Below are positions 3,104-51,250 of a DNA stretch of 64,000 nt, one piece after another. Every line of letters begins with the position of its first letter. Position 1 is the stretch's first letter. A program made the position numbers and the translations under genes. Under the pieces are notes generated by a model. That model saw only the letters and a program-made list of their open reading frames with translations. It ran no database searches and was not told the origin of the DNA. Source of the stretch: Verrucomicrobiota bacterium (GTDB lineage: Bacteria; Verrucomicrobiota; Kiritimatiellia; CAIQIC01). The stretch covers positions 5,411 to 69,410 of the forward strand of contig SCQF01000012.1 in the NCBI GenBank assembly GCA_004321905.1, read 5' to 3'.

Positions 3104-4039
3104 TCAGCAGCAAACGGGTGTGGCGAGCGGATCACCGGGACGTGGTTGGGCTTTCCAGCGGCGGTGAATCCAAATCCACTGATCGGGATGCGCGCGGATT
3201 TCGCGTTCGAGAATGGACGTGTAAAGCTGCGTGTAACGCAAGACGGTTTCCGGCGTGCGGTCGGGCGGCGGCTCGATCACGGGCAGAATGCGGATGTGGT
3301 GGCCACCATCTGCGCGGCGTTGGATGAAGACAGGGATCACCGGCGCCTGCGCTTGCGAAGCGAGTACGGCCAACCCCGGCGAGGTGCTGGCGGGGCGTCC
3401 GAAAAATTGCACGAACACGCCTTTGTCGTGCGGCCGGTTTTGGTCGAGCATGAAGCCGACCAGCTTGTTTTCGCGTAGCGCCCGGATGCAGGTGCGGGCC
3501 GCGTTGTGGGCATAGACGACGGTGATGCCGTAACGCTGGCGCAGGCGATTCCAGAGTTCATCCACGGCGGTGTTTTTGAATTTCTTGGCGACGATCGAGA
3601 GTTGATATTTACGCTGGGCGGTGTACATCGCGAGCAATTCCCAACTGCCGTAGTGCGCCATGAGAATCAACGCGCCACGCCCGCGCGCAAGGGCCGCGGT
3701 GACGATTTCTTCGCCTTCGACGCTGAATAAGTCGCGGATATTTTCATCCGCGCCGCCGGCTTCGCGCAGAATTTCCACGAGATTGGTGGCCAAATTTCGA
3801 TACATGCCGTTGAGTGCGGCGACGGCGGCGGTGGGCGTGAGTTCCGGCAAGCTGCGGCGCAGTGCGGCGAGCGCCTCGGCGCGGCGCTGGCGGACGATAT
3901 GGCCATAGAACCAGCCGAGTCGCGCGCCGAGCCGCAATATCGTAGGGCGCGACACGCGCGCGAGGCCACGGGAAATGCCGTTGAGTATAAAGTGAAGCAT
4001 GCGCCGGAAAGAATAAGCTTTCGCGGATGAAAACGCCAA
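3104..4039 (-). CDS. Lipid A biosynthesis lauroyl/myristoyl acyltransferase family (LpxL/HtrB-like lysophospholipid acyltransferase)
   Basis: LPLAT_LABLAT-like motifs are present (LILMAHYGSWELL, GFMLDQN, QFFGRPASTSPGLAVLA). The true start may be the internal Met (MLHFILNG) near 4000. Confidence 0.7.
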   Translation of the reverse strand: MAFSSAKAYSFRRMLHFILNGISRGLARVSRPTILRLGARLGWFYGHIVRQRRAEALAALRRSLPELTPTAAVAALNGMYRNLATNLVEILREAGGADENIRDLFSVEGEEIVTAALARGRGALILMAHYGSWELLAMYTAQRKYQLSIVAKKFKNTAVDELWNRLRQRYGITVVYAHNAARTCIRALRENKLVGFMLDQNRPHDKGVFVQFFGRPASTSPGLAVLASQAQAPVIPVFIQRRADGGHHIRILPVIEPPPDRTPETVLRYTQLYTSILEREIRAHPDQWIWIHRRWKAQPRPGDPLATPVCC

Positions 4040-4084: not shown

Positions 4085-5878
4085 CTATTTTTGCAAGGGC
4101 CGCGGTTTTTGCAGCATTTTGGCGCCGCCGAGATCGCCGAGCGTCGCACGCTCAAGATCGGTCCAGAGCGTGCCTTCGCCGGCGTGCAGGATGTTGATTC
4201 GCACGGCGGGGTTCAGGTTCTTGGCGAGTTCGGCGAGCGTATAGGCCTGCGGATCGCCGAGTGCGGTGGCCTTGAGTTGGAAGCCCTTGGCTTTTTCGCC
4301 TTCGACCATCTGGGTTTTTTCGGCCTGCGCCTTGCCCAGTTTTTTGACCTTTTCGGCGCGTTGCACCGCGGTTTGCTGTTCGACGAGCGCGGCCTGCTTG
4401 ATCGTCTCGGCCTGAATTTCTGCGACCATCTTCTCCTGCGTGGCGCGGATTTCCGCTTTGAGTTTGGCGGTTTCTTGTGCGACCTCGGCGCCGCGCTGCT
4501 CGATCAGCGACTGCTCGGTATTGAGTTGCGCCAACCGCCGCGCGGTGTTCTGCTTCTCGCGGTTGGTCAGGTCCTGCTCCACCGCGATGCTCGCCTGTTG
4601 GATGGGATCAAGAATCTGATCGGGCACATTGACGTGCCGAATCAGCGCGTTGTGGATGGAGATGTTTTTCTCCGCCAAACTTTTCTTGAGACTTTCGGTC
4701 AGGTCGGTCTGGAATTTTTCGCGGCCCTCGCCGACGATGAAATCCACTGCGCGATAGGCCGAGCCTTTGAGCCGCGAAATGGAGAGAATCTTCGGCATGA
4801 TGATTTTATCCACGACCGCGGGCAGATCGCCGTAGTCGCGGAAGATGGTCGGAATTTTGTCGGGCAGCAGCTCGAATTCCACCGTCATGTCGAGGCTGAT
4901 CTCGAAACCGTCGCGCGACGGGAATCCGACGAACTGGTTGAGCACAAACGTCGGCGTTTGGGCCTGTGCTTCGCCCGGTCGGCGCGGCTTGCCGCCCATC
5001 GCAGGTGCGGCGGCGGGCGCCAGATCGCGTCGAACGCTAGATTTTTTGTGAGAGTATAAAAGCGAGTCATAGGACGCGGGGGTCGCGGCCACGCCTTCTG
5101 CTTCATTGACGGCGATCTGCATTTTCCCGCCTTGAGCCTGGATTTCTTTGGCGCGCTGTTCGGCCTGACTTTCCAGCACTTTGAATTGCAGCGCGTTCAT
5201 TGCCTCGTTTTTGCTGGCGATCGCGCCTTTGGTGATGATGGCGCTACCCGCTTTGCCGAGCATCGAAACCTGGTTCAAGCCGACTTCGAGCACATCCACC
5301 TTGAATTCCTTCGGGTTGACGTAATAAAGCCCCGGCTGCAAAACGTCGGAGCGGATACCCTTTTGGTTCGCACCGGCAAATTGGCCCTCTGGCGCTTTTG
5401 CGCCGGCAAGCGAAGTGACCACGCCAACGTAGCCGATCGGAATCGAGATCGCGTCCAGTACGTCAATTTGATAACCGGATGGATTCAGGCGGTATTTGCC
5501 CGGGCCGAGCACCCCGCGCGAGATACCCTTTTGCCCCGGATTAGCGAGAAATTCGCCCTGCGGTAAGTCGTTGCCGACTTTGGAGGTCACAATGCCGACT
5601 TTGCCGGGCGGAATGCTGACCAGCGGTTCAATCTGGTGCTCGAAAAGATAGGGGTTCAGGAAATGCCGGCCCTCGCCGAGCACGTCTTCCTGCACGCCCT
5701 TCTGACCCTTGTGCGCCAAAATTTGGCCCGGCCCCAGCGGCTCGCCTTCCTTGGCGATGATCACCGCCATGTGATCTGCCGGCACATAGAAGCGGCAGAA
5801 GCCCCATTCCCAAAAGAGCCACAAACCGCCGACGGCCAGCACTATCAATACAATCAAAATGCCCAGTGATTTTTTCAT
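4085..5878 (-). CDS. SPFH/Band-7 domain membrane protein with an N-terminal triplicated ~50-aa repeat and a C-terminal coiled coil
   Basis: There is an N-terminal TM helix, then three repeats of the pattern P-G-x-x-L-A-x-x-G-x-K-G-I/V-x-x-D-V-L-x-P-G-x-Y-x-x-N-P. A SPFH core follows (FEISLDMTVEFELLPDKIPTIFRDYGD...), then a long Q/A/E-rich coiled coil. Confidence 0.65.
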   Translation of the reverse strand: MKKSLGILIVLIVLAVGGLWLFWEWGFCRFYVPADHMAVIIAKEGEPLGPGQILAHKGQKGVQEDVLGEGRHFLNPYLFEHQIEPLVSIPPGKVGIVTSKVGNDLPQGEFLANPGQKGISRGVLGPGKYRLNPSGYQIDVLDAISIPIGYVGVVTSLAGAKAPEGQFAGANQKGIRSDVLQPGLYYVNPKEFKVDVLEVGLNQVSMLGKAGSAIITKGAIASKNEAMNALQFKVLESQAEQRAKEIQAQGGKMQIAVNEAEGVAATPASYDSLLYSHKKSSVRRDLAPAAAPAMGGKPRRPGEAQAQTPTFVLNQFVGFPSRDGFEISLDMTVEFELLPDKIPTIFRDYGDLPAVVDKIIMPKILSISRLKGSAYRAVDFIVGEGREKFQTDLTESLKKSLAEKNISIHNALIRHVNVPDQILDPIQQASIAVEQDLTNREKQNTARRLAQLNTEQSLIEQRGAEVAQETAKLKAEIRATQEKMVAEIQAETIKQAALVEQQTAVQRAEKVKKLGKAQAEKTQMVEGEKAKGFQLKATALGDPQAYTLAELAKNLNPAVRINILHAGEGTLWTDLERATLGDLGGAKMLQKPRPLQK

Positions 5879-7428
5879 TTTCCAGCCTCCTTATGCGCTG
5901 CTGTCGGCAGGTAGGGCAGGAACAAACCGCCCAACCCATCCGCTTGATCGGTGGCGAGGATCGTCTCAATCCGCGGTCCGACTTTCTGATAGAAGAGATA
6001 GCGCGCGTAGTTCAAGCCGCTGCCGAACGCCAGCGCTTGATTTTGAAACACCTTGGCTTCGGCCTCGTTGTTGAGCCGGACAACCGTTTGATCGCCGCCG
6101 GCCTCGGCAATCACCGCCGCCGCTTGCGCCTCGGCGGCGTCGTTTTCCAGCTTGGCCACGGCGAGCCCCTGCTGCGCGGCGGTCAGCCGTACTTGCTGTT
6201 CCTGCTTGGCGAGAATCGTCGCCTGTAATTGCAAGGTCTCGGCCTGCACCTTTTCCTGATTCTGACGCGCGAGCATTTCCTGTCGCGTCAGTTCAGCCTT
6301 GGACTTGGCCTGCTCGATTTGCTGGTCATACATCTTCGCCGTCTGCTTGGCCAACTCGCGGTCGCGAATGATGCTGGCGATTTGATCCGGCACGGTGATG
6401 TTGCGAATCAGCACCGACCGAATCGCCACACCCGCCGCTTTGCACGTTTCGCGCAGATGCGCTTCGAGGTTGTTCTGAAACGCCTGCCGCATCTCGCCGA
6501 CGATATAGTTCAATGCCGGATTTTTGCTGCCTTCGATCCGGCTGAATCCACGGGCGCGCGGCAAAATGACTTTCTTGAGCACGTCGTCCATGTCGCCGAC
6601 TTGATGCGTCAGCAGCGCGGCCTTGTCGCGGAGCAGCGCGAATTCCAGCGTGCCTTCGACGTGAACGGTGAAGCCATCCATCGTCAGGAAATTGATCGAG
6701 TCATCGCCACTCATCTCGAAGCGCTGGCTCCGCAAATTCACTTCGTTCACGTTGAACAAATAGGGATTGAGGTAATGCGTGCCGGGGTCGAGCACCTCCG
6801 CCTGCACGCCTTTCAAATCGGCGCCGACGATGAACGTATTTCGCTGCTCCGCCGGAATGCTGTTCGAGAGCGGATCCTTGCCGACCAGCCGCGTCACCAC
6901 GCCGACGCAGCCCGGGCGGATGGCGATCGCATCGAAAATCTGCACCTGATAGGCGTAGGGATTGATGAAATGCTTACCCGGTCCGAGCACGTCCGGCAGC
7001 ATACCCTTGGTGTCTTTACCCGCAAGAATCTGGCCCGGCGGCAAATCTTGGCCATAGAGCCGCGTCAGCACGCCGAGCTTGCCCGCCGGGATATCGGTGA
7101 CCGGTACGATCTGCCGATCCCACGAATACGGATTTTTGAAATAGCGGCCCGGCGAGAGCACGTCGAGTTGAATGCCCTTCTGCTCCGGCTGCAACGCGAG
7201 GATTTCGCCCGACGGCAAATTCGCGCCGGTCTTGTGAATCATCACCGCGAGTTCGTCCGCGCCCGGTTCGATGCGCCAGAAAAACCAGACCCAGCCCGGC
7301 AGCACCACAACCAAGCCGATCGCGAGCAGCGCCAGCACCGTGGCGATGCCGATGCCGCGCCCGAGCGACGGCAACGTCGAGCGTGACGGAATGGGCGGCG
7401 GCGAACTCCAACCATGTTCTCGTTCCAT
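5875..7428 (-). CDS. SPFH/Band-7 domain membrane protein, paralogue of the upstream gene (HflK/HflC-like tandem pair)
   Basis: It has the same architecture: TM helix, repeats (GIQLDVLSPGRYFKNPY, GMLPDVLGPGKHFINPY, GVQAEVLDPGTHYLNPY), a SPFH core and a coiled coil. It overlaps the downstream gene by 4 bp (ATGA). Confidence 0.65.
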   Translation of the reverse strand: MEREHGWSSPPPIPSRSTLPSLGRGIGIATVLALLAIGLVVVLPGWVWFFWRIEPGADELAVMIHKTGANLPSGEILALQPEQKGIQLDVLSPGRYFKNPYSWDRQIVPVTDIPAGKLGVLTRLYGQDLPPGQILAGKDTKGMLPDVLGPGKHFINPYAYQVQIFDAIAIRPGCVGVVTRLVGKDPLSNSIPAEQRNTFIVGADLKGVQAEVLDPGTHYLNPYLFNVNEVNLRSQRFEMSGDDSINFLTMDGFTVHVEGTLEFALLRDKAALLTHQVGDMDDVLKKVILPRARGFSRIEGSKNPALNYIVGEMRQAFQNNLEAHLRETCKAAGVAIRSVLIRNITVPDQIASIIRDRELAKQTAKMYDQQIEQAKSKAELTRQEMLARQNQEKVQAETLQLQATILAKQEQQVRLTAAQQGLAVAKLENDAAEAQAAAVIAEAGGDQTVVRLNNEAEAKVFQNQALAFGSGLNYARYLFYQKVGPRIETILATDQADGLGGLFLPYLPTAAHKEAGK

Positions 7429-7470
7429 AGCATCCTCCGATTTGTGGCGACTCTAGCACGCGGGCTCCGG

Positions 7471-7521
7471 TTTTCCAAGGTTTGGAAAAGGGAACAGGCG
7501 TTTTTCCCAAACCTTGGAAAA
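7471..7521. repeat. Paired palindromic units (TTTTCCAAGGTTTGGAAAA, 12 bp, TTTTTCCCAAACCTTGGAAAA) forming a ~51-bp dyad
   Basis: Two units whose centres are mutually reverse-complementary (GGT vs ACC), so the whole pair is one larger palindrome. They lie between the SPFH operon start (7428) and the lipoprotein stop (7542). Confidence 0.8.
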
Positions 7522-7541
7522 CCGCCCATCCGCTATGCGCC

Positions 7542-9161
7542 TCAATTCTTTGTCTTCGCCGCGACCTTGCGGGCCTGTTCCACCAACTCGGCCAAGGCGG
7601 CGGCGGGTACGACATGGAGGCGCTGCTCCTGCTGCAAGGCGAGATCGAACGGCATGGATTTACGCGAAGGCCGGCGGTTCATGGCCATCGGCTGCAAGGC
7701 CGTCACGCCCAGCAGACGACCATCGGCTAGAAAAATGGGTACACCCAACGGATTCTCGCCACCGGGATGGCCGTCGGTCAAATAGAAGACGCGCGGCTGG
7801 GTGATGCAGGCCGTGATTTTGCCGGTATCGGCGGTGAGGGTATAATGGTGCGAGCGATCAAGGCGGCTGATCGCGAGCACGTCGTCGAAGAGCTCTGCTT
7901 TGGCGTTCGGCTGCAAGGCGAGCGCGGGCCAAGCGGGGATTTTTTCGCCGGACTTCGGCGCGGGCGCAAGCACGGTCAACATCAGGTCGTCGTCTTGCAA
8001 GACGATGCGGGCGGGCACTTCCGTCCCGTCATGCAGCACAAAGTTCAGATGCTGCTCTTCATATTTGAGCTCGGCGGTCTTGCCGCTGTTGCCGCAGATC
8101 GCGAAACCCGCGCGGTCCACCAGCGTGGCGACGCATTCGACGTTTTGTTCGTGCGGCTTCGCGTTGTGGCCGTCGTTATACTTGAGGGAGCCACGCAACG
8201 TGACGATCGCGTCCTGCCGGGCCGCGATGAACGCGCGCGCCTGTTCACCGGAAATTTCGCCGAGCGTCGTTGGTCCCGCCGCGCGAGTGAGCGCCGGTGG
8301 CGGTTGGGCCACCGTGATAACGCGCGCGGTGGCTTTTTGGGCGCGCGCCACCAAGTCGCGCACGTCTGCGACCGGTAAAATGATCGACAGAGGCCGCACT
8401 TGGTTTTCCGATATCTTTTCGAGTTGCTCCAAATCGGGTGGGCGGAAATCCACCGAGCCGATGCCGATCAAGCGGCCATCGGTGGCAAAAACAGGCAGGC
8501 CCAGCGGCACGATTTCCGTCATGAACATGTGGCACGCCCGCGGCTTGGTCAACGCATTCACCGGCAGGCCACGCACCACCAGCGGGGTGCGCTGACAAGC
8601 TTCACCGGTGCGACTGAGCACCAGACAGGGCGCGTGCAACGCCGGCGTTGCTTCACCCGTCAGCGCTAGCGCGGGGAACGCGGACGTTTTTGCGCCGGCT
8701 TGCGGCTCGATGGCGAGCACGGTGAGGCCGAGGTCGTCATCCTGGGTGACCACGCGTGCCGGTACTTCCGTTTTATCCGCAAGCAGAACGCGCAACTTTT
8801 CCAAGTGCGCCTTGAACTCGATTTCGAACGATTGGTCGCCACGCTGAATATGCAGCGGGCCGTGGAACATGCTGCTCACAGGGTCCAGCAACAAGTTGCC
8901 CGCCACGACCCAACCGGTGGCATCCACAATCGTCGCCGGGGCTTCCACCGGCGCTTCATTTTCCTGCTTCATGCCCAGACCTTTCACGGTCATGGTGGTC
9001 TTGAGCGTGCCCAACACCGTGACGATCGAATTTTGATGCGCGGCCACCAAGTGCCGGGCGAGCGCGGCGCTGCCGCCCATCGCATGCGATCCCGACCGGC
9101 TGGAGACGCAACCGGCGAGTGCGAGCAGCACCACTGCGGGAATCGCGTATAAAATTTTCAT
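7542..9161 (-). CDS. Lipoprotein with two tandem degenerate (catalytically inactive) trypsin/HtrA-like domains
   Basis: A lipobox is present (LLALAGC). Both duplicated halves share remnants of HtrA core motifs (VVTQDDDLGLTVLA / IVLQDDDLMLTVLA; LIGIGSV / LLGVTAL) but lack the His and the GNSGGP Ser. It is co-oriented with htrA. Confidence 0.45.
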   Translation of the reverse strand: MKILYAIPAVVLLALAGCVSSRSGSHAMGGSAALARHLVAAHQNSIVTVLGTLKTTMTVKGLGMKQENEAPVEAPATIVDATGWVVAGNLLLDPVSSMFHGPLHIQRGDQSFEIEFKAHLEKLRVLLADKTEVPARVVTQDDDLGLTVLAIEPQAGAKTSAFPALALTGEATPALHAPCLVLSRTGEACQRTPLVVRGLPVNALTKPRACHMFMTEIVPLGLPVFATDGRLIGIGSVDFRPPDLEQLEKISENQVRPLSIILPVADVRDLVARAQKATARVITVAQPPPALTRAAGPTTLGEISGEQARAFIAARQDAIVTLRGSLKYNDGHNAKPHEQNVECVATLVDRAGFAICGNSGKTAELKYEEQHLNFVLHDGTEVPARIVLQDDDLMLTVLAPAPKSGEKIPAWPALALQPNAKAELFDDVLAISRLDRSHHYTLTADTGKITACITQPRVFYLTDGHPGGENPLGVPIFLADGRLLGVTALQPMAMNRRPSRKSMPFDLALQQEQRLHVVPAAALAELVEQARKVAAKTKN

Positions 9162-9880
9162 GGCGCTTCCTTGGTTGTGGTCGCCGTGGCGGCGGCGTGG
9201 CGTGCTTGTTCGATAACGTCCTGCAATTCATCCGCCGCCACGATGGTCTGCCGGCCCAAACCGACGCCGACCAGTTGGCCCGTCGCGTTGAAGACCGCCT
9301 CGCCATCGCCGCTGACCAGATGGGCGCAGCCATAAACCGTGCGCGGCTTGGTTTCCACGGAATTGATTTTGGCCGGTGCCGTTTCTACCAACGCGTTGTG
9401 ATTTTTGTCCATGCGCCCGACGATCACAATATCATCCAACACGTGCGCCTTGGCGGTCGCGGCCCAGTTGACCGGCTTGAAGGTGCCCGCCGCTACCGCG
9501 GACGGTTTTTCCGGCGCGAGCAAGACCGCATCGAGATCGCGGTCGGTCAACACAACACGCACCGGCAGTTCCGTTCCGTTGGGCAACTTGACCTTGAGTG
9601 TGCTTTCGCGGATTTCGATCTTGCGCGTGAGCAGCGAGATTTGCACCACGCTGGACGAGGTGAGCAGCAGGCCGTTGGTGTCCACGACCGTGACCGGCCC
9701 TTCGACCGTCGTGTCGTGTACTTGGTTGCAGCGCCCGCACATAAACTTGAGCGCACCGCTCAGCATGAGCACGGAATTTTGGTTGGTCGCTTGGATGGCG
9801 CGGATGGTGCCGGGCGGCAATTCCGCGCGCGCCGTGCCGGCGGCGATCAGCGCGCCGCACAAAATCATTTTTATTTTCAT
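9158..9880 (-). CDS. Secreted single-domain degenerate trypsin/HtrA-like pseudoprotease
   Basis: A signal peptide (MKIKMILCGALIAAGTARA) is present at the internal Met 9880. Compared with HtrA, the His region reads TSSSVV, the Asp is kept (DRDLDAVLL), and the Ser motif GNSGGP is replaced by SGDGEA. Confidence 0.45.
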   Translation of the reverse strand: MKIKMILCGALIAAGTARAELPPGTIRAIQATNQNSVLMLSGALKFMCGRCNQVHDTTVEGPVTVVDTNGLLLTSSSVVQISLLTRKIEIRESTLKVKLPNGTELPVRVVLTDRDLDAVLLAPEKPSAVAAGTFKPVNWAATAKAHVLDDIVIVGRMDKNHNALVETAPAKINSVETKPRTVYGCAHLVSGDGEAVFNATGQLVGVGLGRQTIVAADELQDVIEQARHAAATATTTKEAP

Positions 9881-9891
9881 AAACCGTGTTC

Positions 9892-9942
9892 CTTTGCCAA
9901 GGCTTGGAAAACGGGAAGGCCGATTTTTCCAAACCTTGGAAA
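9892..9942. repeat. Paired palindromic units (tttGccaaggcttggaaaa, 13 bp, ttttccaaaccttggaaaa)
   Basis: Located between the htrA stop (9951) and the downstream lipoprotein start (9880). The second unit ends only 9 bp after the htrA stop, and the first ends 12 bp before the next ATG. Confidence 0.8.
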
Positions 9943-9950
9943 ACGCCTCA

Positions 9951-12029
9951 TCATGGGGCATTTTTCTTGCTCGCGCCGTTCCCGTTGGTCCAATCCGGCT
10001 CCAGTTCGGCAAACAGCGTATGCACGCCACGCTTCAAGAAAAATACGACGCGCCTGGCTTTGGCGTGCGCGGCTTGCTTGAGCCGTTTTTCGGCGGTCGC
10101 CACGTCGCCGGTCGTCGTGCCGTCAATCGCCAGCAAAATGTCGCCACTGGCCAAGCCGGCCAGTTGCGCCCAGCCGCCGGTTTCGACGACGGCGATCTTT
10201 ACGCCTTGGAGGTCCGCCGGAATATCGCGATGAATCCGTTCCAGTTCCGTGAGCTTCTCGATGGTCAGATCGAAAACATCGTCTTTATAGGGTAGATGCT
10301 CCTCGGCGGTGCTCAAATCTTCCTCTAGTTTTAGAGTGAGCGTTTGCGACTGGCCGCCGCGCAAAATTTCGCAGGGCACAGCGCGACCCACGCGGTAGCG
10401 CCGGATCTGCGCGTAGATATCGCTCACGTCTTCGGGCCGCTCGCACTTCACCGGGTCGCCATCGAACTTCAGCAGGATGTCGCCCTTTTGAAAACCGGCG
10501 CGTTCGGCGGAGTGGCTGCGATAGACCAGTGTGACCAACGCGCCGCTGCGGCCCTGCAAGCCCAGTGCTTCGGCCAGTTCCGGGCTGAGCGCCTGCAATT
10601 CGGCGGAGAGTCCCGGCTTGCGCGCCGGTTCGACGTCGGGCCGTTTCTGCTCCTTACCGATTTTCACGACCGTCAAATACTGTCGTTTGCCGTGATCGAA
10701 TTTCACGAGCACCGGCTTGGTACCTTCGATGCCCTTGAGTTGCGCGTCGGTCACGCGGCGTAAATCGGCCACGCTGTTCACCGCGGCCTGGGCCACTTCC
10801 AGAATGACGTCACCTTCGTTGACCGCCGGCTTGGCGTCGCTCACGGCGCTCGCCAAACCCACGGAAACGACCAGCACGCCATTGGTGTTCGGCCGTTGCC
10901 ATTCGATGGCCGCGATCAGCGTCAGGTTACGCGCCACCATGCCCCATTCCTTGAGTTCCACGTCGTTGCTTTGCGCCTTGCCGCGCACGCGGGTCGTCAG
11001 GGTCAGCTTGTGTTCCTTGCCGTCGCGCAACGTCACGAGTTCCACTTGTTTGCCGACCGGCGTGGAAAGGAGCAGCCGGTTGAAAGCCGGTAAATCTTCC
11101 GGGATGCGGGCATCCACCTCCACGCCGTCATATTTTTGCAACACATCGCCCGCCTTGAGTCCCGCCGCCGCCGCGGGCGAATCGGGCAAGACACCGCCGA
11201 CGAGTACGCCACGTTCGATGCCCAGATTTTTGGGCCGCGCCTGTCCTTCGATGCCCAGCCAGCTCCGCTGCACACGGCCTGTCGCGATCAGTTGCTGCGC
11301 CACGTCTTTGGCGATGTTGCTCGGAATCGCGCCGCCCAAACTGCCCAAGCCGATTTCGTTGATGCCGATGATTTCGCCCGCGGGGTTCACCAGCGGTCCG
11401 CCGCTGTTGCCCGGATAAATCACGGCGTCGTGGCCGATCCAACGCACGACTGAACCGATGGCCTCGCCCTCTTCGCGGAAAGCACCCGCGCCGCCGAACA
11501 TGGAAGGTAGCATGAGCTGCGTGTTGCTGATAATACCCTTGGTCACCGACTGCGAGACGCCCGCCGGACAACCCATCGCCAACGCCACGTCGCCCACCCT
11601 CAACTGGTCGGAATCGCCGAATTGCGCCACGTGCAGCGGCGCTTTATTTTTGCGTTTGCTCAAATCAAGTTGCACGATGGCGATGTCCGTCAGCGGATCG
11701 GTCGCCACCAGCCGCGACTCGACTTCTTCGCCGTCGTACATCCGGCAGATCAGCCGCTTGCCGCGCCCGGCCACATGGTGATTGGTGATGATATAGCCAT
11801 CCTCGGAAATGATCGCGCCGCTGCCGGAACCGAGATTTTTTTCCAGCCGTCCGCTACGCGGCGACTCCATCACCACCATGATCCGCACCAGCGACTGGTA
11901 CATCCGGCTCACCGCGCGATCCACTTCCGCCGCGCTGATGGCGGGCGTTTCTGCGTGCGCGGGCAGGCGGGCGAGCAGCGCCGCCGAAAAAACGAGCAGC
12001 CCCACAAAGCGCCGGCGGTTTGGTTGCAT
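9951..12029 (-). CDS. htrA: HtrA/DegP/DegQ-family periplasmic serine endopeptidase with multiple PDZ domains
   Basis: The S1C catalytic triad motifs are intact (TNHHVAG, DIAIVQLD, GNSGGPLVN) and there is a signal peptide. The long C-terminal region is PDZ-like. Confidence 0.9.
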   Translation of the reverse strand: MQPNRRRFVGLLVFSAALLARLPAHAETPAISAAEVDRAVSRMYQSLVRIMVVMESPRSGRLEKNLGSGSGAIISEDGYIITNHHVAGRGKRLICRMYDGEEVESRLVATDPLTDIAIVQLDLSKRKNKAPLHVAQFGDSDQLRVGDVALAMGCPAGVSQSVTKGIISNTQLMLPSMFGGAGAFREEGEAIGSVVRWIGHDAVIYPGNSGGPLVNPAGEIIGINEIGLGSLGGAIPSNIAKDVAQQLIATGRVQRSWLGIEGQARPKNLGIERGVLVGGVLPDSPAAAAGLKAGDVLQKYDGVEVDARIPEDLPAFNRLLLSTPVGKQVELVTLRDGKEHKLTLTTRVRGKAQSNDVELKEWGMVARNLTLIAAIEWQRPNTNGVLVVSVGLASAVSDAKPAVNEGDVILEVAQAAVNSVADLRRVTDAQLKGIEGTKPVLVKFDHGKRQYLTVVKIGKEQKRPDVEPARKPGLSAELQALSPELAEALGLQGRSGALVTLVYRSHSAERAGFQKGDILLKFDGDPVKCERPEDVSDIYAQIRRYRVGRAVPCEILRGGQSQTLTLKLEEDLSTAEEHLPYKDDVFDLTIEKLTELERIHRDIPADLQGVKIAVVETGGWAQLAGLASGDILLAIDGTTTGDVATAEKRLKQAAHAKARRVVFFLKRGVHTLFAELEPDWTNGNGASKKNAP

Positions 12030-12104
12030 GTGCGATTCCCTTCCTTACGTTGTTGCGTTTCAGACCGGGCGGATGACGCCGGCGTTCAAAACGGTTCGGC
12101 AGCT

Positions 12105-12155
12105 TTTTCCAAGGGTTGGAAAAAGTCAACCGTCCATTTTCCCGGCCTTGGAAAA
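12105..12155. repeat. Paired palindromic units (ttttccaagggttggaaaa, 13 bp, ttttcccggccttggaaaa)
   Basis: About 75 bp upstream of the htrA start and immediately downstream of the response-regulator stop (12168). Confidence 0.75.
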
Positions 12156-12167
12156 CCGCGCCGGGCC

Positions 12168-12842
12168 TCAGTCGGCGACGTGGTTTTGATGCCAAGCGCT
12201 GGCCACGTCTTTCGGCCCCAGCCCCCAACGCCGCGCGTAGGCCAGCAATTCGCGGTCTGAATGGACGTCCAGTTTGCGTCGCGTGTTTTTCCGATGGACG
12301 CTCACGGTGTGTTCGGAAATCCTGCACTGTGCCGCGATTTCCGGGTCGCTGAAGCCGCCCACGACCAGCCGCAGCACTTCCTGTTCCCGCGTGCTCAAAA
12401 TTTTGTGAAAGGCCTCGGCGGAGGCGAGGTATTGTTTCCGGACGGCGAGGAAGCCCGGCGAAAAAAAGACGCAGCCAGCCAACACACGTTGTACGGCTTC
12501 CGTAACCACGCTCAACGGGCTGGGTTTTTCCACATAGCCTTGCACGTCGCTCTGGATCACCCGGTAGATGGTGTGGGGATCCATGTAGGCCGAGAGCATG
12601 AGAATCTTGACCGTCGGCACGACCGCGCGCAATGGCGCGATCATTTCCAGGCCGCTGGTGCCGGGCAGTTGAATGTCCAACAAGATTAGCTCGGGCTGGG
12701 TTTGCGTCGCCAGCGGATAGGCTTCGGCGGCGCACCGCGCGCAGCCCACGATGCTCAGATTCAATTGGCTGGCCAAGCACGCCGATAGCAGGTCGGCGAG
12801 CAACTGCTCATCTTCTACGATCATGACCGACGGGCGTTTCAT
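12168..12842 (-). CDS. NarL/LuxR-family two-component response regulator (REC + LuxR HTH), orphan with no adjacent kinase
   Basis: A receiver domain is present (MIVEDEQLLADLL...ILLDIQLPGTSGLEM...KILMLSAY), followed by a LuxR HTH (LSTREQEVLRLVVGGFSDPEIAAQCRISEHTVSVHRKNTRRKL). Confidence 0.85.
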   Translation of the reverse strand: MKRPSVMIVEDEQLLADLLSACLASQLNLSIVGCARCAAEAYPLATQTQPELILLDIQLPGTSGLEMIAPLRAVVPTVKILMLSAYMDPHTIYRVIQSDVQGYVEKPSPLSVVTEAVQRVLAGCVFFSPGFLAVRKQYLASAEAFHKILSTREQEVLRLVVGGFSDPEIAAQCRISEHTVSVHRKNTRRKLDVHSDRELLAYARRWGLGPKDVASAWHQNHVAD

Positions 12843-12884
12843 GGGCCAACAGCATAACAACAGAGCCGGACGCAAGGCAAACAC

Positions 12885-14288
12885 TCACCGGCGCTTGAAA
12901 ATATGGGTGCAGTGGCCGCCGGCAACTTCGGCGGCTTCCATGATCGTTTCGGAGAGCGTCGGATGCGGGTGGATGGTCAGGGCGAGGTCTTCGGCGGTCG
13001 CGCCCATTTCGATGGCGAGCACGCCTTCGGCAATCATATCGCCCGCGCCGTGACCGGTGAGGCCGACGCCAAGGACACGGTCACTTTCGGGATCAATCAC
13101 GAGCTTCGTCACACCTTCCTGCCGGTCGAGCGTCAGCGCGCGACCGGAGGCGGTCCACGGGAACTTGGCGACCTTGACCGTGCGACCTTCCTGCTCGGCC
13201 TGCGCTTCGGTCAGCCCGCACCACGCGATTTCGGGGTCGGTAAAGACGACGCCGGGGATCGCGCGCGGTTCAAAGACGCTCTTTTTTCCAAGAACCGCCT
13301 CGACTGCGACGCGCGCCTCGTGCGTCGCTTTGTGCGCGAGCATCGGTTCGCCGGCAATGTCGCCGATCGCGAAAATCGTCGGTTCGCCGGTACGGCGTTG
13401 CCCATCCACCTTCACAAAACCACGCTGATCGAGTTCAATCTTGGTATTTTCCAAACCAAGATCGCGCGAGTTCGGCTTGCGACCGACCGAGACCAGTACA
13501 CGGTCAAAGGTCTGCTCCGGCTGGGTCACCTGCGCGCCCTCGAAGCGGACTTTCAGACCGTCGCCCGCTTCGGTGATCGAAGCGACCTTGGTCTCCAACA
13601 TGATCGCGGCGAATTTCTTCTGTAACCGTTTGGCCAGCGGCGCGACGAGGTCGCGGTCAGCACCGGGCAATAGTTGCGACGTCATTTCCACGACGCTGAC
13701 GCGCGTGCCGAGCGCGGCATAGACCGAGCCGAGCTCCAAGCCGATGTAGCCGCCGCCGACCACGAGCAGCGACTGCGGAATCGTCTCCAGCGCGAGCGCG
13801 CCGGTGCTATCCCAAAGGCGCGGCGACTGGTTTGGGAAACCGGGAATTTGTGCGGGCGAGGAACCGGCGGCAAGAATCGCGTGATCGAACGCGAGTGTTT
13901 CCTCGGTGCCGTCGGCTTTGCGGATGAGCAACGAGTGGCCGTCACGGAATTTGGCGCGGCCTTGGACGAAGCTGATCTTACGCGCCTTGCGGAGTTGGCC
14001 AAGGCCGCCGGTCAAACCCGTGACGACGCTTTCCTTCCACGCGCGGATTTTGGCGAGATCGAGCTGTGGCACGCCAAACGTCACGCCCCACTTCGCGGCG
14101 TCGTGCGCCTCTTCGACCAACTTGGCGATGTGCAATAACGCTTTCGAGGGAATGCAGCCGCGATAGAGGCAGACGCCGCCGGGATTTTGTTCCTGATCCA
14201 CCAACGCCACCTCCAAGCCGAGGTCTGCCGCCAGAAATGCCGCCGGATAACCACCCGGCCCGCCGCCGATCACTACGAGTTTGCTCAT
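12885..14288 (-). CDS. lpdA: Dihydrolipoyl dehydrogenase (E3 component)
   Basis: The 467-aa product has a FAD-binding GGGPGG, the redox-active CxxxxC (GGVCLYRGCIPSKALL), an NAD-binding GGGYIGLE and the HPHPTLSE dimerisation motif. The start is the internal Met 14286-14288; the 775-aa ORF-track extension is spurious antisense of the neighbouring transporter. Confidence 0.9.
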   Translation of the reverse strand: MSKLVVIGGGPGGYPAAFLAADLGLEVALVDQEQNPGGVCLYRGCIPSKALLHIAKLVEEAHDAAKWGVTFGVPQLDLAKIRAWKESVVTGLTGGLGQLRKARKISFVQGRAKFRDGHSLLIRKADGTEETLAFDHAILAAGSSPAQIPGFPNQSPRLWDSTGALALETIPQSLLVVGGGYIGLELGSVYAALGTRVSVVEMTSQLLPGADRDLVAPLAKRLQKKFAAIMLETKVASITEAGDGLKVRFEGAQVTQPEQTFDRVLVSVGRKPNSRDLGLENTKIELDQRGFVKVDGQRRTGEPTIFAIGDIAGEPMLAHKATHEARVAVEAVLGKKSVFEPRAIPGVVFTDPEIAWCGLTEAQAEQEGRTVKVAKFPWTASGRALTLDRQEGVTKLVIDPESDRVLGVGLTGHGAGDMIAEGVLAIEMGATAEDLALTIHPHPTLSETIMEAAEVAGGHCTHIFKRR

Positions 14289-15432: not shown

Positions 15433-17889
15433 TCAGGGCGCAACGATCTCGAAGGGGATCGCCGGTAGCGTGGTCGCCTGAAATCGTTGTTTGTTGTTGG
15501 GTGACTTATTTTTCGCGGAGCTGCCGGAACGTTTCAGGAAAACGGCGACGATCAAGTTGCCTTTTTGGCCGGGTTTGTTTTTCGTCGCATCACTGACCAC
15601 AATGAGATCACTGCCGCCGGAGACGGACACAACTTTTTGGAGGGTGATGCCGTCGGGGGGATCGCTCAGTTCCATCTCCAGTTTCCCGTATGAAATGCTG
15701 GACGGCACGTTCACCTGGATACGCGCCGTACCGCCGGACGGGATTTTGATCGGCAACGCACTGAGCACTTTGGCGGCGGCTTTTTGTTTGAAGTAGCCGC
15801 CCACCGCCACATCCAAGTCTTGGAAAGGAACCAGATGCCGGTAGAAAAAGGCCTGCATCATGTCTTCAGCCGGCACCGCGATATGGGTCACCACCTGGCT
15901 GTTGATCGTCGCCTGACCTTCAAAAACCGGATGAAATACTTCCACCGGCGAGGACGGGGCGACGGTCAGCGTAAGCTTCACTTGGTCTTGGCCGGCGGGT
16001 ATCCCGGTGCCGCTCAACTTGAAGTCTTTTGGCGCATTTTTGAGCGTAATCGCGATCGCGTTGGTGAAGCCGTCGTGACGCACCGCATAGACGGTGAGCG
16101 GCACCGTGCCGCCGATGCGGACATTGATGCTGGACGGAACCAGGCGGAGCGCAAAATCAGGACGCGGCGCGCTGAGGCGCAAGCGGTAGGCAAATTCCGG
16201 GCCACCTTGGTGCTGCGTATCCGCGATCTCCAGATAATACGCGCCATTCGTCGGCAGCGTGGCGCGGAGGTAGGAATCGGCGTGATGCGTTTCAAGACCC
16301 GAACCCTTGTCCTCAAAATCGTCATTGAACGCAATCTGTTTGCCGTTGGCATCGGTCAGCCGGAGTTCGGAATCGAGCGGCGAGTTGAGGCGGCGCGCGA
16401 TGACTTCGGCAATGATCTGGTCGCCGGTTTTGCCTTCGAATGTGAAAAAGTCCCGATCGCCGGGGTGATCAATACGGCCGTTCACGATGATCGGGAGCGT
16501 GACCGCTTGGGCGGTCCGGCGCTGGCCGTTGGATTTTTTCTCAAAGCACTCGGGCAAGGCGTCCACCACAAACGGCGCGAAATTGGATATCCAGTCGTCC
16601 TGGCGCACAGAAACAGGATAGATGCCCGGCGCTTTACTTTGATTGTCGAGCGTCAGCCGATGGCTCGGTAGATTCCAGCCTTTCAACTCGACGGTCGTTG
16701 AGGCGCCGGCAGGGCCGCCGAGGGGAAAGAGACTCGTGATGAAAGGCATTTCGCCGAGGGTGATGCGATAGACGAAATCTTCACGACCACGATAAATGGA
16801 ATCCTTGATTTCGAGCACATAATCGCCATCCGCCGGGATTTCATAATAGAGCACCGGATCAGGATTGAAACGGAAGTCATCGTCATAGGCCACTTCTTTG
16901 CCCGCCGCGTCGTAGAGCGTCAGCGTGGCTTGGAACCATCCGGGCACCGCATCGGCCAGGTAGGGAATCAGCTCGCGTGCGCTGGCGGCGATGACGAGGT
17001 GTGTGCCCTGCTGGGCCGCGAAACGGAAACGATCCACGGTGCCGGGCATGATCTGGCCGTTGACGACGGTGGGTAGCGTGATCTTTGTCTCCGTTTTTTC
17101 TTTGGCGATTTTCGTCTGATAACCAAGTTGGGCTTCCTTGAGCGTCCGTTGTCCCCGAATGGTCTTGATCGCCGGCTTGGTGAATTCCGGCATTTGGCCG
17201 ATCTTGAAGAGTAGTGGATTCGTCAACCCTTGCGGTGTTCCCAAGCGTACCTCGCGGTCGCCCGGCTTGGCGTCCGCGGCCACCGTAACGCGCAGCATGG
17301 CGAGTTCGGAGATCGCCGGGTTCTCCGGCCTTCTGACGCTCGAATACGCTTTCTTGCGTATCTCATAGAGCAGCTTGTCGTCGGCATCCGTCCAGGTGGC
17401 GTGGGCATATTTCTTTTTGATGGCTTCCAGTTCCTGGTCGTCTGTGGCGCTATCGCTCTTGATGGTCTTGGAATTTTTGAAGCTCCGGAACTTTTCCAAG
17501 GCCCGGAAATCGTTCCGTACCACGGCCCGGCGCGCCATCAACTCATCGAGTTGAATGCGCAGGTCATTAAGTTCCTTCTGCGTAATGGGCCGAACAAAGT
17601 CGGTGAGGGTGGCTTGCACGCCGCCGCCCGAGATGAACACATTGGTGATGCCGATCAAAAACTGTCCACCAATGACCACCTCGAACGTGGTGCCTTGGCG
17701 TCCGCCGGCGGGATAGACATAGCCGATGTGCGGCGCGCTTTGCTGCGCCCCCGCGCTGCCGGGAAACAGCAGCGCTGCCGCAAAAACCGTTAGCGCACAC
17801 CAGCGTGCGGCGCCGTTTTCCAAGGCTTGGAAAAAGGTGCGGTTGTGTTTTCCAAGCCTTGGGAACTGCTGTCGAAATAGGGTTCTCAC
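15433..17889 (-). CDS. Large secreted hypothetical protein with pre-peptidase C-terminal (PPC)-like beta-sandwich domains
   Basis: An 818-aa ORF with a hydrophobic signal-like segment (CALTVFAAALLFPGSAGAQQ) and repeated D-x-D-x-Y-x-L-E-I motifs (GDYVLEIKDSIYRGREDFVYRITL; GAYYLEIADTQHQGGPEFAYRLRL). The start is ambiguous because the first 25 codons run through a palindromic-repeat pair. Confidence 0.4.
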   Translation of the reverse strand: MRTLFRQQFPRLGKHNRTFFQALENGAARWCALTVFAAALLFPGSAGAQQSAPHIGYVYPAGGRQGTTFEVVIGGQFLIGITNVFISGGGVQATLTDFVRPITQKELNDLRIQLDELMARRAVVRNDFRALEKFRSFKNSKTIKSDSATDDQELEAIKKKYAHATWTDADDKLLYEIRKKAYSSVRRPENPAISELAMLRVTVAADAKPGDREVRLGTPQGLTNPLLFKIGQMPEFTKPAIKTIRGQRTLKEAQLGYQTKIAKEKTETKITLPTVVNGQIMPGTVDRFRFAAQQGTHLVIAASARELIPYLADAVPGWFQATLTLYDAAGKEVAYDDDFRFNPDPVLYYEIPADGDYVLEIKDSIYRGREDFVYRITLGEMPFITSLFPLGGPAGASTTVELKGWNLPSHRLTLDNQSKAPGIYPVSVRQDDWISNFAPFVVDALPECFEKKSNGQRRTAQAVTLPIIVNGRIDHPGDRDFFTFEGKTGDQIIAEVIARRLNSPLDSELRLTDANGKQIAFNDDFEDKGSGLETHHADSYLRATLPTNGAYYLEIADTQHQGGPEFAYRLRLSAPRPDFALRLVPSSINVRIGGTVPLTVYAVRHDGFTNAIAITLKNAPKDFKLSGTGIPAGQDQVKLTLTVAPSSPVEVFHPVFEGQATINSQVVTHIAVPAEDMMQAFFYRHLVPFQDLDVAVGGYFKQKAAAKVLSALPIKIPSGGTARIQVNVPSSISYGKLEMELSDPPDGITLQKVVSVSGGSDLIVVSDATKNKPGQKGNLIVAVFLKRSGSSAKNKSPNNKQRFQATTLPAIPFEIVAP
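17816..17866. repeat. Paired palindromic units (ttttccaaggcttggaaaa, 13 bp, ttttccaagccttgggaac)
   Basis: Located between the DUF1501 stop (17902) and the start region of the 818-aa ORF. Confidence 0.8.
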
Positions 17890-17901
17890 CGTTTCACCTC
17901 T

Positions 17902-19260
17902 TCACATGATTTCCGTCAGCCGGCCGGCCGAGGCCAGGTTTTCCCCTGTGGCGGGCATCACGCGGACATCCCAACCTTGCGGATGCGGCAGTTTCGCCTC
18001 GGTGTCGATGCCGAGCAGTTCGTACATGCTGCCGATGAGATCGGGCGGATAAATCTGGCGGCCCGTCACTTCTTCGCCGGTTGCGTTGGTGGAGCCCACC
18101 ACCCGTCCGCCCTTGAAGCCGCCGCCGGCGACCACGTGACAGAATGCTTTGCCAAAGTGGTTGCGGCCGCCGTTCCACGGCGGTTCCCACTGCACCCGCG
18201 GTGTCCGGCCGAATTCGCCGCCCCACCACACAATGGTGCTGCCGAGCAAGCCGCTATCCGACAAATCCTGCAACAGCGTTGCCATCGCTTTATCCATGAT
18301 CGGCAAGTTGCGACGCATGGCCTGGAAATTCTCCTTATGCGTGTCCCAGCCTTTGTAATTGATCGTGACATAGGGCACGCCGCGTTCGACCAGCCGCCGC
18401 GCCATCAGGCACGCTTGCCCGAACGTGTTGCGGCCATATTTCTCGCGCAACGCGTCCTTCTCCTGCGCAAGATCAAACACCTTGCCGGCATCGCCCAGAA
18501 TGAGGTCATAGGCTTGGTGTTCGCACTGCTCTGCGGCGGCCAAGCTGGGATCGTTCTTGATGACGACGCCCAACGTATTCAGATTGTGGAGGAGTTCGCG
18601 CCGGGCGCGTTGCCGCTTGTCGGAGATGCCGCGGGCCACGACGCCTTCGACGACAAAGGGCGTTTGGCCCGGATCGCCGCCCGTCGCAAACGGTTTGGCG
18701 CGTGAACCGAGGAAGCCCGATTCGGAAAAACGGCCCTGTAATTCGGTCAACACGATGTAGGGCGGGATCAATCCTTTGTAACCGGCTTCATAGCCTTTGA
18801 AGAGCGAAACCACCGCGCCGACACCCGGATAAACCTGTCCCGTGCCGGGCTTGCGTCCCGTTTGCACTTCGTAGGATGCGGTTTCGTGGCCATTCACGCC
18901 GTGGGTCATGCCGCGGAGAATGGAATACTTGTCGGCCTGCTTGGCCAATTCGGGCAGCAGCTCACAAATGCGGATACCGGGTACGTTGGTGGCAATCGGT
19001 TTGCTCAGCGGTCCGCAGAAATCATTGCCCGCTTCGGGTTTGGGATCGAAGGTGTCGAGATGACACGGGCCGCCCCACATCCAGATTTGGATGACGGCCT
19101 TGGCGGTCGCCGGTCGCACGGCGGCGCGCGCGGGGACGATCAAGCGGTCGGCCAGCAGCAAACCCGCCGTGCCAAGAAACGTGCGCCGCACGGCCTCGCG
19201 CCGTGTGATGGGCCCGCCGCGCAGACTGGCCAGTATTCGCTCGTTCTGATTTGAGTTCAT
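17902..19260 (-). CDS. DUF1501 domain protein (sulfatase-like fold, Tat signal)
   Basis: A Tat motif is present (RRTFLGTAGLLL), along with conserved DUF1501 blocks (WGGEFGRTP). Confidence 0.8.
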   Translation of the reverse strand: MNSNQNERILASLRGGPITRREAVRRTFLGTAGLLLADRLIVPARAAVRPATAKAVIQIWMWGGPCHLDTFDPKPEAGNDFCGPLSKPIATNVPGIRICELLPELAKQADKYSILRGMTHGVNGHETASYEVQTGRKPGTGQVYPGVGAVVSLFKGYEAGYKGLIPPYIVLTELQGRFSESGFLGSRAKPFATGGDPGQTPFVVEGVVARGISDKRQRARRELLHNLNTLGVVIKNDPSLAAAEQCEHQAYDLILGDAGKVFDLAQEKDALREKYGRNTFGQACLMARRLVERGVPYVTINYKGWDTHKENFQAMRRNLPIMDKAMATLLQDLSDSGLLGSTIVWWGGEFGRTPRVQWEPPWNGGRNHFGKAFCHVVAGGGFKGGRVVGSTNATGEEVTGRQIYPPDLIGSMYELLGIDTEAKLPHPQGWDVRVMPATGENLASAGRLTEIM

Positions 19261-19287
19261 GGTGACACCTGCTTTTCCTTCATTAAC

Positions 19288-20877: not shown

Positions 20878-21048
20878 GCTGCGCCGTGACGATTGCATAA
20901 AGCTCCCAATTTTTGGGCCAATAAATTTACCGCCATTCATACAACGTGTCATCCGGCCCAAAATTGTAATCCCGCCCATGGAAAAAGTCAGGCGTAGAGC
21001 CAGCCAAAGATCATCACACGCAGCCCCAACCCCAACAGCAGAAAGAAG

Positions 21049-21390
21049 ATGGCGGTGACGATCATGAGCGTGTTGGCACAGTGGATGTGCGCCGCCGGAG
21101 CTGGGGCGCGATCCGCAGATCGAGGTGCCCGGCAGCGCGCCCGAGGCCTGCATCGCACGCGACAAAATTCTCAAGCTGGTCCCCGACGTGGTGCTGCTCG
21201 ACCATCGAAATGCTGCGCATGGATGGCCTCATATTCCTACGCAAGCTGATGCACTATCATCCCGTACCCGTCATTATTGTCTCTTCGCTCACACCACCGG
21301 GCGGCCAGGTCGCACTGGACGTCATCGCTGCCGGTACCGTGGATGTGGTCTGCAAGCCCAGGCCGCAACTGCCATGGGCCAATAGGGCAG
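21049..21390 (+). pseudogene. Decayed CheB/CheY-like receiver-domain gene remnant (frameshifted, truncated)
   Basis: Two frames together read ...DPQIEVPGSAPEACIARDKILKLVPDVVLLD / IEMLRMDGLIFLRKLMHYHPVPVIIVSSLTPPGGQVALDVIAAGTVDVVCKP. This is the conserved REC domain of protein-glutamate methylesterase CheB, split by a frameshift, with no intact N-terminus or methylesterase domain. Confidence 0.4.
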
Positions 21391-21569: not shown

Positions 21570-21620
21570 GTTTCCAAGGCCTGGAAAACATAACCGTCCC
21601 TTTTTCCCAAGGTTGGAAAC
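21570..21620. repeat. Paired degenerate palindromic units (gtttccaaggcctggaaaa, 12 bp, tttttcccaaggttggaaac)
   Basis: Located at the 3' end of the CheB-like remnant. Confidence 0.7.
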
Positions 21621-23174: not shown

Positions 23175-23225
23175 TTTTCCAAGGGTTGGAAAAGCGACGG
23201 CGGCCGTTTTCCAAACCCTGGAAAA
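23175..23225. repeat. Paired palindromic units (ttttccaagggttggaaaa, 13 bp, ttttccaaaccctggaaaa)
   Basis: The first unit begins 4 bp upstream of the HAD start codon, and the pair lies 27 bp downstream of the tsf stop. Confidence 0.8.
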
Positions 23226-29633: not shown

Positions 29634-29684
29634 TTTTCCAAACCTTGGAAAAGCGCCGCCGCTATTTTTCCAGGGCTTGGAAAA
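29634..29684. repeat. Paired palindromic units (ttttccaaaccttggaaaa, 12 bp, tttttccagggcttggaaaa), centres in the reverse order (ACC then GGC)
   Basis: Located between the TPR gene start (29583) and the aminotransferase stop (29685). An extra half-site gcttggaaaa sits at 29584-29593, abutting the TPR ATG. Confidence 0.8.
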
Positions 29685-32155: not shown

Positions 32156-32205
32156 TTTCCCAGCCTTGGAAAAAGCGCCTATTCCGTTTTCCAAGGCTTG
32201 AAAAA
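32156..32205. repeat. Paired palindromic units (tttcccagccttggaaaa, 12 bp, ttttccaaggcttgaaaaa)
   Basis: Located between the NDK-like start (32082) and the NUDIX stop (32208). Confidence 0.75.
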
Positions 32206-35707: not shown

Positions 35708-35758
35708 TTTTCCAAGGCTTGGAAAACCAAAACCTTTCTTTTTCCAAACCTTGGAACA
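35708..35758. repeat. Paired palindromic units (ttttccaaggcttggaaaa, 13 bp, ttttccaaaccttggaaca)
   Basis: Starts 5 bp after the GT4 stop. Confidence 0.8.
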
Positions 35759-38804: not shown

Positions 38805-38807
38805 TCT

Positions 38808-39500: not shown

Positions 39501-39546
39501 AACCCGAAAAATAATGGCACCATTCGAAGCGCGTTGGCGATAACCC

Positions 39547-41138: not shown

Positions 41139-41166
41139 TCCCTCGCCTCTATGACCTGAGCATGAA

Positions 41167-46082: not shown

Positions 46083-46097
46083 GGTCCCTACAAACTC

Positions 46098-49721: not shown

Positions 49722-49832
49722 AAAAATATTCCCATGGTGAGTTAATTTCGCAAGCTATGGCCCGCCGCTATCGCTGGTCGTCACCACTCATCTTGGGCAA
49801 AGATGACAATGCCCCGTGAACAGGAATCAACC

Positions 49833-51095: not shown

Positions 51096-51250
51096 TAACA
51101 ACTTCAGCCCCTCCCCCTCCCAAGAGGCATGGCCCATATTCTCTCAATGAATCGGGGGGCGATAAAAGAACGCTTCTTTTCGCGAAGCCGAAACATTTTG
51201 TTTCGACATAAACTTTGTGAGCAGCCCGCCGAAACGGTAACCAATCTCAT

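Follow-up and report, generated by a model that had tools for sequence, protein, structure and literature searches.

Exported, catalytically dead HtrA-like proteins encoded directly after a four-PDZ HtrA protease: candidate partner subunits in Verrucomicrobia, Planctomycetes and allied phyla

Among the ATP-independent proteases of the bacterial envelope, those of the HtrA family are central to quality control and stress signalling. What is understood of their regulation comes almost wholly from homo-oligomers (DegP, DegQ, DegS), and the only pseudoenzyme-based regulation of HtrA known so far is that of the specialised magnetosome pair MamO/MamE and, in one polypeptide, that of eukaryotic DEG7/Nma111. 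MamO is a membrane-integral protein with an extra transporter-like domain and a surface di-histidine metal site, and is not known outside magnetosome islands. This dead HtrA-like protein activates MamE-dependent proteolysis without catalysis, and the study that describes this also reports several independent origins of HtrA-like pseudoproteases (Hershey et al. 2016, PMC4794232). In DEG7 a degenerate protease domain mediates trimerisation, and orthologues of DEG7/Nma111 were reported from no organisms other than fungi, plants and algae (Schuhmann et al. 2011, PMC3194040). According to the same study, trimers are the form in which HtrA protease domains assemble (PMC3194040). Here we analyse a 64,000-nucleotide stretch of DNA, called the window below, from a Verrucomicrobiota bacterium of the Kiritimatiellia (assembly GCA_004321905.1, contig SCQF01000012.1, positions 5,411 to 69,410 of the forward strand), in which the gene of an active HtrA is followed by two genes encoding dead HtrA-like proteins. 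An open reading frame (ORF) scan of the window confirmed the four co-oriented genes of this region, all on the minus strand (coordinates are those of the window):

9951-12029, minus strand: active HtrA/DegP-type serine protease of 692 residues (Pfam Trypsin_2 and PDZ_2 matches, triad motifs)
9158-9880, minus strand: single-domain dead HtrA-like secreted protein of 240 residues (Trypsin_2 match, AlphaFold2 model with Foldseek matches, alignment A1)
7542-9161, minus strand: lipoprotein of 539 residues with two tandem dead HtrA-like domains (Trypsin_2 match in two stretches, alignment A2)
12168-12842, minus strand: NarL/LuxR-type response regulator of 224 residues, ATG at 12842 (Pfam Response_reg and GerE matches)

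The HtrA stop codon lies 70 bp from the start of the gene for the 240-residue protein, and the stop of the latter gene overlaps the start of the next in the sequence ATGA. The original prediction gave the smaller protein a length of 290 residues, which had to be corrected. The first 50 codons of the 290-codon ORF (9158-10030) overlap the 3' end of htrA and cross an intergenic palindrome, and we place the start at the ATG at 9880 (MKIKMILCG) because the N-termini of homologues and an identical 240-residue database protein (P0001) agree on it. Both downstream genes do encode proteins with export signals, as had been claimed. The 240-residue protein has a Sec signal peptide with the cleavage site ARA|E, and the 539-residue protein has a lipobox (L15-A-G-C18) followed by tandem domains at about residues 30-280 and 300-539.

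After its signal peptide the HtrA of the window has a protease domain at about residues 60-245 and, at about 246-692, four PDZ-like segments, where one or two are usual. Its motifs TNHHVA, TDIAIV and GNSGGP supply H85, D115 and S209, the intact His-Asp-Ser triad that had been predicted for it. Trypsin_2 matched with an E value of 6e-26 and PDZ_2 with 2e-31 in four stretches; scanned singly, three of the PDZ-like segments scored above the Pfam threshold and one was weak. With the intact triad and the PDZ domains the protein belongs among the active HtrA/DegP serine proteases (MEROPS S1C). As its score against the Do-family model TIGR02037 (367 bits) falls under the cutoff of 416, we regard it as a member of a divergent subfamily. 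Its nearest solved sequence relatives are MucD, DegP, DegQ and AlgW, of which DegP and DegQ have two PDZ domains fewer than its four. The NCBIfam MamO model matched it weakly (E 2.4e-7), far under the model cutoff. A motif resembling a twin-arginine translocation signal (RRRF) in the signal peptide was set aside as not conserved, being present in 3 of 40 orthologues.

The two proteins encoded next were assigned to the HtrA fold by profile and by structure prediction. Both matched Pfam PF13365 (Trypsin_2) above its gathering threshold of 27.6 bits, the 240-residue protein with 39.8 bits (E 1e-9) and the 539-residue protein with 42.4 bits (E 1.5e-10), and all three dead domains matched above that threshold. 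The profile search thus bore out a trypsin-like relationship. The internal tandem duplication claimed for one of the proteins is real and lies in the 539-residue protein, since both halves are homologous to the 240-residue protein (BLASTP E 2e-24 and 5e-10). AlphaFold2 models of the 240- and 539-residue proteins had predicted local distance difference test scores (pLDDT) of 87.3 and 83.5 and predicted template-modelling scores (pTM) of 0.84 and 0.82. In Foldseek searches the top PDB matches of the smaller model were Deg1, HTRA1, DegP, DegS and DegQ (E about 1e-10), with the DegP hexamer 1ky9 among its fold matches, and those of the larger were DegS-deltaPDZ and HTRA1. The best PDB matches of both models were exclusively HtrA-family protease domains (E about 1e-10, target template-modelling score about 0.7), so that the predicted structures are of the HtrA protease fold and not of an unrelated one. 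Both models end at the C-terminal helix of the protease domain, and a Pfam scan found no PDZ match in either protein at E<=1. A direct sequence search of the 240-residue protein against the PDB gave chance matches only, and the family profile gave marginal HtrA matches among solved structures (best E 0.036). Hence, the fold assignment rests on Pfam and structure prediction.

The catalytic residues were located by residue alignment, with the Asp taken in its best register:

His position: S77 in the 240-residue protein, L90 in domain 1 and S359 in domain 2 of the 539-residue protein
Asp position: D117 in the 240-residue protein, G145 in domain 1 and M394 in domain 2
Ser position: D192 in the 240-residue protein, L220 in domain 1 and L472 in domain 2

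The segment TSSSVV of the 240-residue protein aligns to TNHHVA of the active enzyme and SGDGEA aligns to GNSGGP, and the replacements read from these motifs in the original prediction (His to S77, Ser to D192) were correct. The His and Ser positions are replaced in every orthologue of both proteins (alignments A1 and A2). The Asp is the least certain triad position. The original prediction had pointed to retained HtrA core strands, among them a DxDL motif. Retention of the core strands agrees with the fold matches, whereas the conserved DxDL is most likely not the catalytic Asp: in two of the three alignments this acidic motif sits just upstream of the catalytic position. D117 is replaced by Gly, Asn or Ala in the orthologues of the 240-residue protein, and one hhalign register would instead retain an Asp. 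We consider that the catalytic Asp has most likely been lost as well. Profile, models and alignments together indicate that the two proteins are non-catalytic descendants of an HtrA protease domain lacking the catalytic His and Ser, as the designation catalytically dead had implied. Like DegP, DegQ and DegS (MEROPS S1C), they are predicted to be periplasmic and to have the chymotrypsin-type two-barrel fold including the protease-domain C-terminal helix. Unlike them, they lack the triad and a C-terminal PDZ domain and are barely detectable by sequence.

A profile built from orthologues of the small protein and searched against 1.84 billion representative proteins showed that these proteins belong to a large family. 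At 50% identity the search gave 1,252 representatives with E<=1e-3, of which 799 reached E<=1e-10; most are 240-300 residues long. A second search, in which 8,000 candidates were scored, gave at least 1,470 clusters at 90% identity and E<=1e-10. Named members come from Verrucomicrobia, Kiritimatiellaeota, Lentisphaerae, Planctomycetales, Phycisphaerae, Sumerlaeota and 'Deltaproteobacteria'. A hydrophobic N-terminus is present in 241 of 242 members and a lipobox-like motif in about 10%. Among the best 140 single-domain representatives the His position is occupied by Ser, Thr or Ala and the nucleophile position by Leu, Pro, Val or Ile, and both His and Ser are replaced in 79/79 ORFs from metagenomes. 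Strongly conserved motifs of the family are GTVIDPSGL, DGTEVPA, DxDLDLAF, KPR and GxPxF..DGxxxG. Across the family the dead genes are intact ORFs with invariant motifs, which we count as a sign of selection (strong purifying conservation), and as the family is both large and conserved we excluded the notion that its members are decaying duplicates. Hidden Markov models (HMMs) of the dead family, run on 92 loci, picked out only ORFs devoid of the His and Ser motifs, and none of the adjacent active HtrAs came up at E<=1e-5. Two loci, L060 and L061, were flagged as active by a GDSGG pattern; these were false positives, since they lack the His and their GDSGG belongs to a Gly-rich loop that comes after the active-site strand.

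Public databases name members of this family 'serine protease', 'S1C family serine protease', 'trypsin-like peptidase domain-containing protein' or hypothetical protein, and P0024, P0085, P0130, P0218 and P0273 are triad-less entries that carry protease names. Such names, together with a Thr, Ser or Cys that many wider-family members have at the second position past the lost nucleophile (G-[TSC]-P), might be taken to mean that the proteins are still peptidases with non-canonical catalytic residues. The names are, however, automatic transfers from Trypsin_2 and HtrA models: 13 of 13 wider-family sequences match Trypsin_2 at E<=0.01, and we found neither a Pfam nor an NCBIfam model specific for the dead family, nor any curated model that separates its members from active HtrAs. 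Moreover, in the window the residues two positions on are E193 (the Glu of SGDGEA), L222 and V474. The family alignment has no conserved His, Ser or Cys elsewhere, and the only near-invariant hydroxyl residue is T75 of the 54-sequence family alignment (A3), which lies in a core strand. Lacking a conserved His or an alternative nucleophile, the family is very unlikely to be catalytic, and we all but dismiss this explanation. A dedicated family model would prevent the mis-annotation of dead members as serine proteases.

The dead genes are strictly coupled to HtrA across genomes, as the original prediction had proposed for the window. We scanned metagenomes with a broad-family motif, using a 13-sequence alignment (A4), and obtained 80 loci, of which 9 have less than 500 bp of upstream sequence and 71 were readable. 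A full-length homologue of the window HtrA stood immediately upstream on the same strand in all 71. These HtrAs retain TNHHV and GNSGGP and are about 680-770 residues long, and the intergenic distance from HtrA to the dead gene falls in most loci between -34 and +121 bp. Distant single-domain relatives likewise directly follow a multi-PDZ HtrA of 619-711 residues. Three metagenome-assembled genomes labelled Lentisphaerae keep the gene order of the window, HtrA first and then the small and the double dead gene, with identities to the window proteins of 79-82% for HtrA, 59-63% for the small and about 54% for the large dead protein. L004, L090 and L091 have this order too, and in these, as in the window, the two dead genes always overlap by 4 nt at their stop and start codons. 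Pairwise distance matrices of HtrA and dead partner correlate with r = 0.88 (0/2000 permutations as high), and the dead partner evolves about 1.2 times faster than HtrA. There is one dead domain in 75 loci, while seven (L011, L012, L015, L016, L017, L026 and L071) have two tandem single-domain dead genes after HtrA, and the window and four others have the single-domain plus two-domain arrangement. The loci with two single-domain genes are intermediate between the common one-gene form and the form seen in the window. A 507-residue gene following the dead gene in L006 was rejected as a diverged double domain (hhalign probability 0.1%).

The pairing of HtrA with dead partners thus appears to be a widespread two- or three-gene module not described before. 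Full-text literature, with most subscription journals not covered, gave nothing on stand-alone dead HtrA partners beside multi-PDZ HtrAs in Planctomycetes, Verrucomicrobia or elsewhere. The nearest described arrangement in bacteria is MamO/MamE, where a degenerate HtrA protein and an active HtrA protease are likewise encoded in one gene cluster. The window system has a degenerate site too; its link to an active HtrA is seen as strict gene adjacency, and a functional link like that of MamO is putative. It differs in that its dead proteins are small, soluble or lipid-anchored, consist of the protease-like domain only and have no conserved His, and in that the dead family occurs in non-magnetotactic bacteria of the PVC (Planctomycetes, Verrucomicrobia, Chlamydiae) type and others. 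The di-histidine site and the extra membrane domain are absent, the neighbours are not magnetosome genes, and the NCBIfam MamO model did not match the dead proteins.

We propose, with moderate confidence, that the dead proteins are partner subunits that bind HtrA and set its oligomeric state, location or activity. The argument is that HtrA protease domains trimerise and that degenerate domains act through an active enzyme or in oligomerisation, as MamO and DEG7 do. In such a scheme the 240- and 539-residue proteins would reach the periplasm along with the four-PDZ HtrA and would bind it, probably as trimer-like units of HtrA-fold domains, and binding would then determine the oligomeric state, location or activity of the protease. 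In the lineage of the window an ancestral single dead gene would have given rise to two translationally coupled genes providing 1 + 2 = 3 dead domains, and the lipid-anchored 539-residue chain could, speculatively, tether the complex to the membrane. The earlier suggestion that the dead paralogues are substrate adaptors or regulators is a reasonable reading of the same facts. Association with HtrA could result in activation, inhibition, scaffolding or anchoring.

Several points weigh against partner subunits. We infer the association of HtrA with the dead proteins from gene linkage and precedent, and separately acting proteins of one pathway would also show synteny and co-inheritance. Nor can a fixed three-domain pseudo-trimer be the general rule, because the number of dead domains per locus varies. 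The C-terminal tails of the dead proteins are charged (rich in Lys, Glu and Pro), unlike the hydrophobic termini that HtrA PDZ domains usually bind, and simple docking of these C-termini in the PDZ domains is therefore unlikely. Finally, the spacer from HtrA to the dead genes of the window holds a palindromic element (described below), and these genes may for that reason be transcribed separately in this lineage.

An alternative is that the dead proteins are stand-alone periplasmic binding proteins or holdase chaperones that serve the same clients as HtrA, or pass clients on to it, and form no stable complex with it, the linkage reflecting co-regulation. The chaperone activity of HtrA proteases such as DegP is independent of catalysis, and the dead proteins are exported and retain the HtrA fold, including the strand that follows the active-site loop (GxPxF..DGxxxGI). 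Synteny would fit a shared pathway as well as a complex. However, the dead proteins lack PDZ domains and have shortened or altered active-site loops, and adjacency at 71 of 71 loci, with very short gaps and stop/start overlaps, is more typical of the subunits of one assembly. The documented dead HtrA domains, moreover, act through an active protease or in oligomerisation. We therefore think stand-alone function unlikely.

Were the dead proteins to bind HtrA, they might do so as dedicated inhibitors, a dead trimer stacking as a lid on the active HtrA trimer until stress releases it. This is a sub-variant of the partner-subunit model and draws on the same evidence for association. In the resting DegP hexamer, face-to-face stacking of trimers blocks the active sites. 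Yet none of the results indicates the sign of the effect, and MamO, which alone among bacterial dead-HtrA partners has been studied by experiment, stimulates its protease instead of inhibiting it. Inhibition by stacking seems to us distinctly improbable.

DEG7, in which the degenerate domain became a trimerisation module, offers the best mechanistic model for a dead HtrA domain. DEG7/Nma111 and the window system contain the same parts (one active domain, four PDZ domains and at least one dead domain). In the eukaryotic proteins these form one polypeptide with the order protease-PDZ-PDZ-dead protease-PDZ-PDZ, an architecture the window system does not have. The latter distributes its parts among two or three genes, places all four PDZ domains after the active one and has its dead domains in separate secreted proteins; by sequence its HtrA is nearest to DegP, DegQ, MucD and AlgW. 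The four-PDZ HtrA and its dead partners could be a bacterial split-gene counterpart of DEG7/Nma111, a possible, if rather doubtful, extension of the partner-subunit proposal. A dead trimer would dock on the active trimer, with the two additional PDZ domains and the KPR motif (invariant in the family and probably located in the L3-loop region) as possible contact sites, to give an obligate hetero-hexamer-like cage; in the window the dead trimer would consist of the 240-residue chain and the two-domain lipoprotein, the latter anchoring the protease to the membrane. If so, it would be the first case of a general protease of bacterial envelope quality control with an obligate pseudoenzyme subunit, found across Planctomycetes, Verrucomicrobia and allied phyla. 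Even partner subunits of a less specific kind would, through this syntenic family, add hetero-oligomeric, pseudoenzyme-based regulation to the picture of HtrA. The module is simple, with two or three genes, and widespread.

The palindromic element between HtrA and the dead genes recurs throughout the window. The perfect 17-nt palindrome TTTCCAAGSCTTGGAAA has 28 matches in the window versus 0.17 expected by chance. The palindromes are nearly always paired with starts exactly 32 bp apart, and are intergenic, lying just upstream of genes on either strand:

9894-9942: the 17-nt palindrome TTKCCAARSCTTGGAAA twice, with 32 bp from start to start, in the gap between HtrA and the gene for the 240-residue protein
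12106-12154 and 7472-7520: identical pairs, in the gap between regulator and HtrA and after the gene for the 539-residue protein, respectively
17817-17865, 21571-21619, 23176-23224, 29635-29683, 32156-32204, 35709-35757, 57970-58018 and 60482-60530: further pairs
2416, 14354, 22473 and 63435: single palindromes

The element is also found in the spacer between HtrA and the dead gene of the relatives L001 and L090. When translated it gives spurious N-terminal ORF extensions of the type FSKPWK / FQALE / FPSLGK. It may be a lineage-specific promoter, operator or element resembling repetitive extragenic palindromes (REP). A scan of 7300-13000 for sigma-70 promoters and intrinsic terminators gave nothing that exceeded the shuffled background.

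The response regulator upstream of HtrA had been proposed to control the cluster. It is a bona fide NarL/LuxR-type protein, with a receiver domain (Response_reg, E 4e-20) that has E10, D11, the acceptor D56, S84 and K106, and a GerE/LuxR helix-turn-helix domain (E 3e-18). It is co-oriented with HtrA, 138 bp upstream of it, and, as the original prediction stated, has no cognate kinase adjacent or among the larger ORFs of the window that were scanned. An intact receiver (D56, K106) and a DNA-binding domain would suit a dedicated transcriptional controller of the HtrA and dead-HtrA genes. However, it is missing upstream of the orthologous cluster in five related genomes (L001-L003, L090 and L091), and for this reason we rejected the link. 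The genes called upstream of HtrA in six distant-relative loci (L004-L009) also include no response regulator, and in the window the regulator gene directly follows that of a dihydrolipoyl dehydrogenase, with which it may belong instead. We give little credence to control of the cluster by this protein, which is probably unrelated to the module.

On the other side of the cluster, two overlapping SPFH/Band_7 genes encoding 517 and 597 residues (4085-7428, minus strand) lie directly downstream of the gene for the 539-residue protein with a lipid A acyltransferase gene (3104-4039) next in line. L091 has this trio after its cluster as well, but L001-L003 and L090 do not. As the arrangement is common only to the window and L091, a link of the cluster to the Band_7/SPFH pair was rejected. 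Farther away, 15433-21174 (minus strand) holds a PVC-typical set composed, in this order, of an 818-residue PPC-domain protein, DUF1501 and PSCyt2/PSD1 (DUF1549/DUF1553) proteins, in keeping with the assignment of the contig to Verrucomicrobia. A long run of plus-strand ORFs at about 38000-57000, several of which start like glycosyltransferases, has a G+C content of 0.47-0.54 compared with about 0.60 elsewhere, and this lower value suggests a horizontally acquired polysaccharide-synthesis island. Finally, 59300-63441 (minus strand) encodes a 966-residue Peptidase_C1 (papain-family) protein with BACON_2 and Flg_new_2 (InlB B-repeat-like) domains, adjoined by an extracytoplasmic function (ECF) sigma factor gene (59830-60471) and a possible anti-sigma gene (59300-59833).

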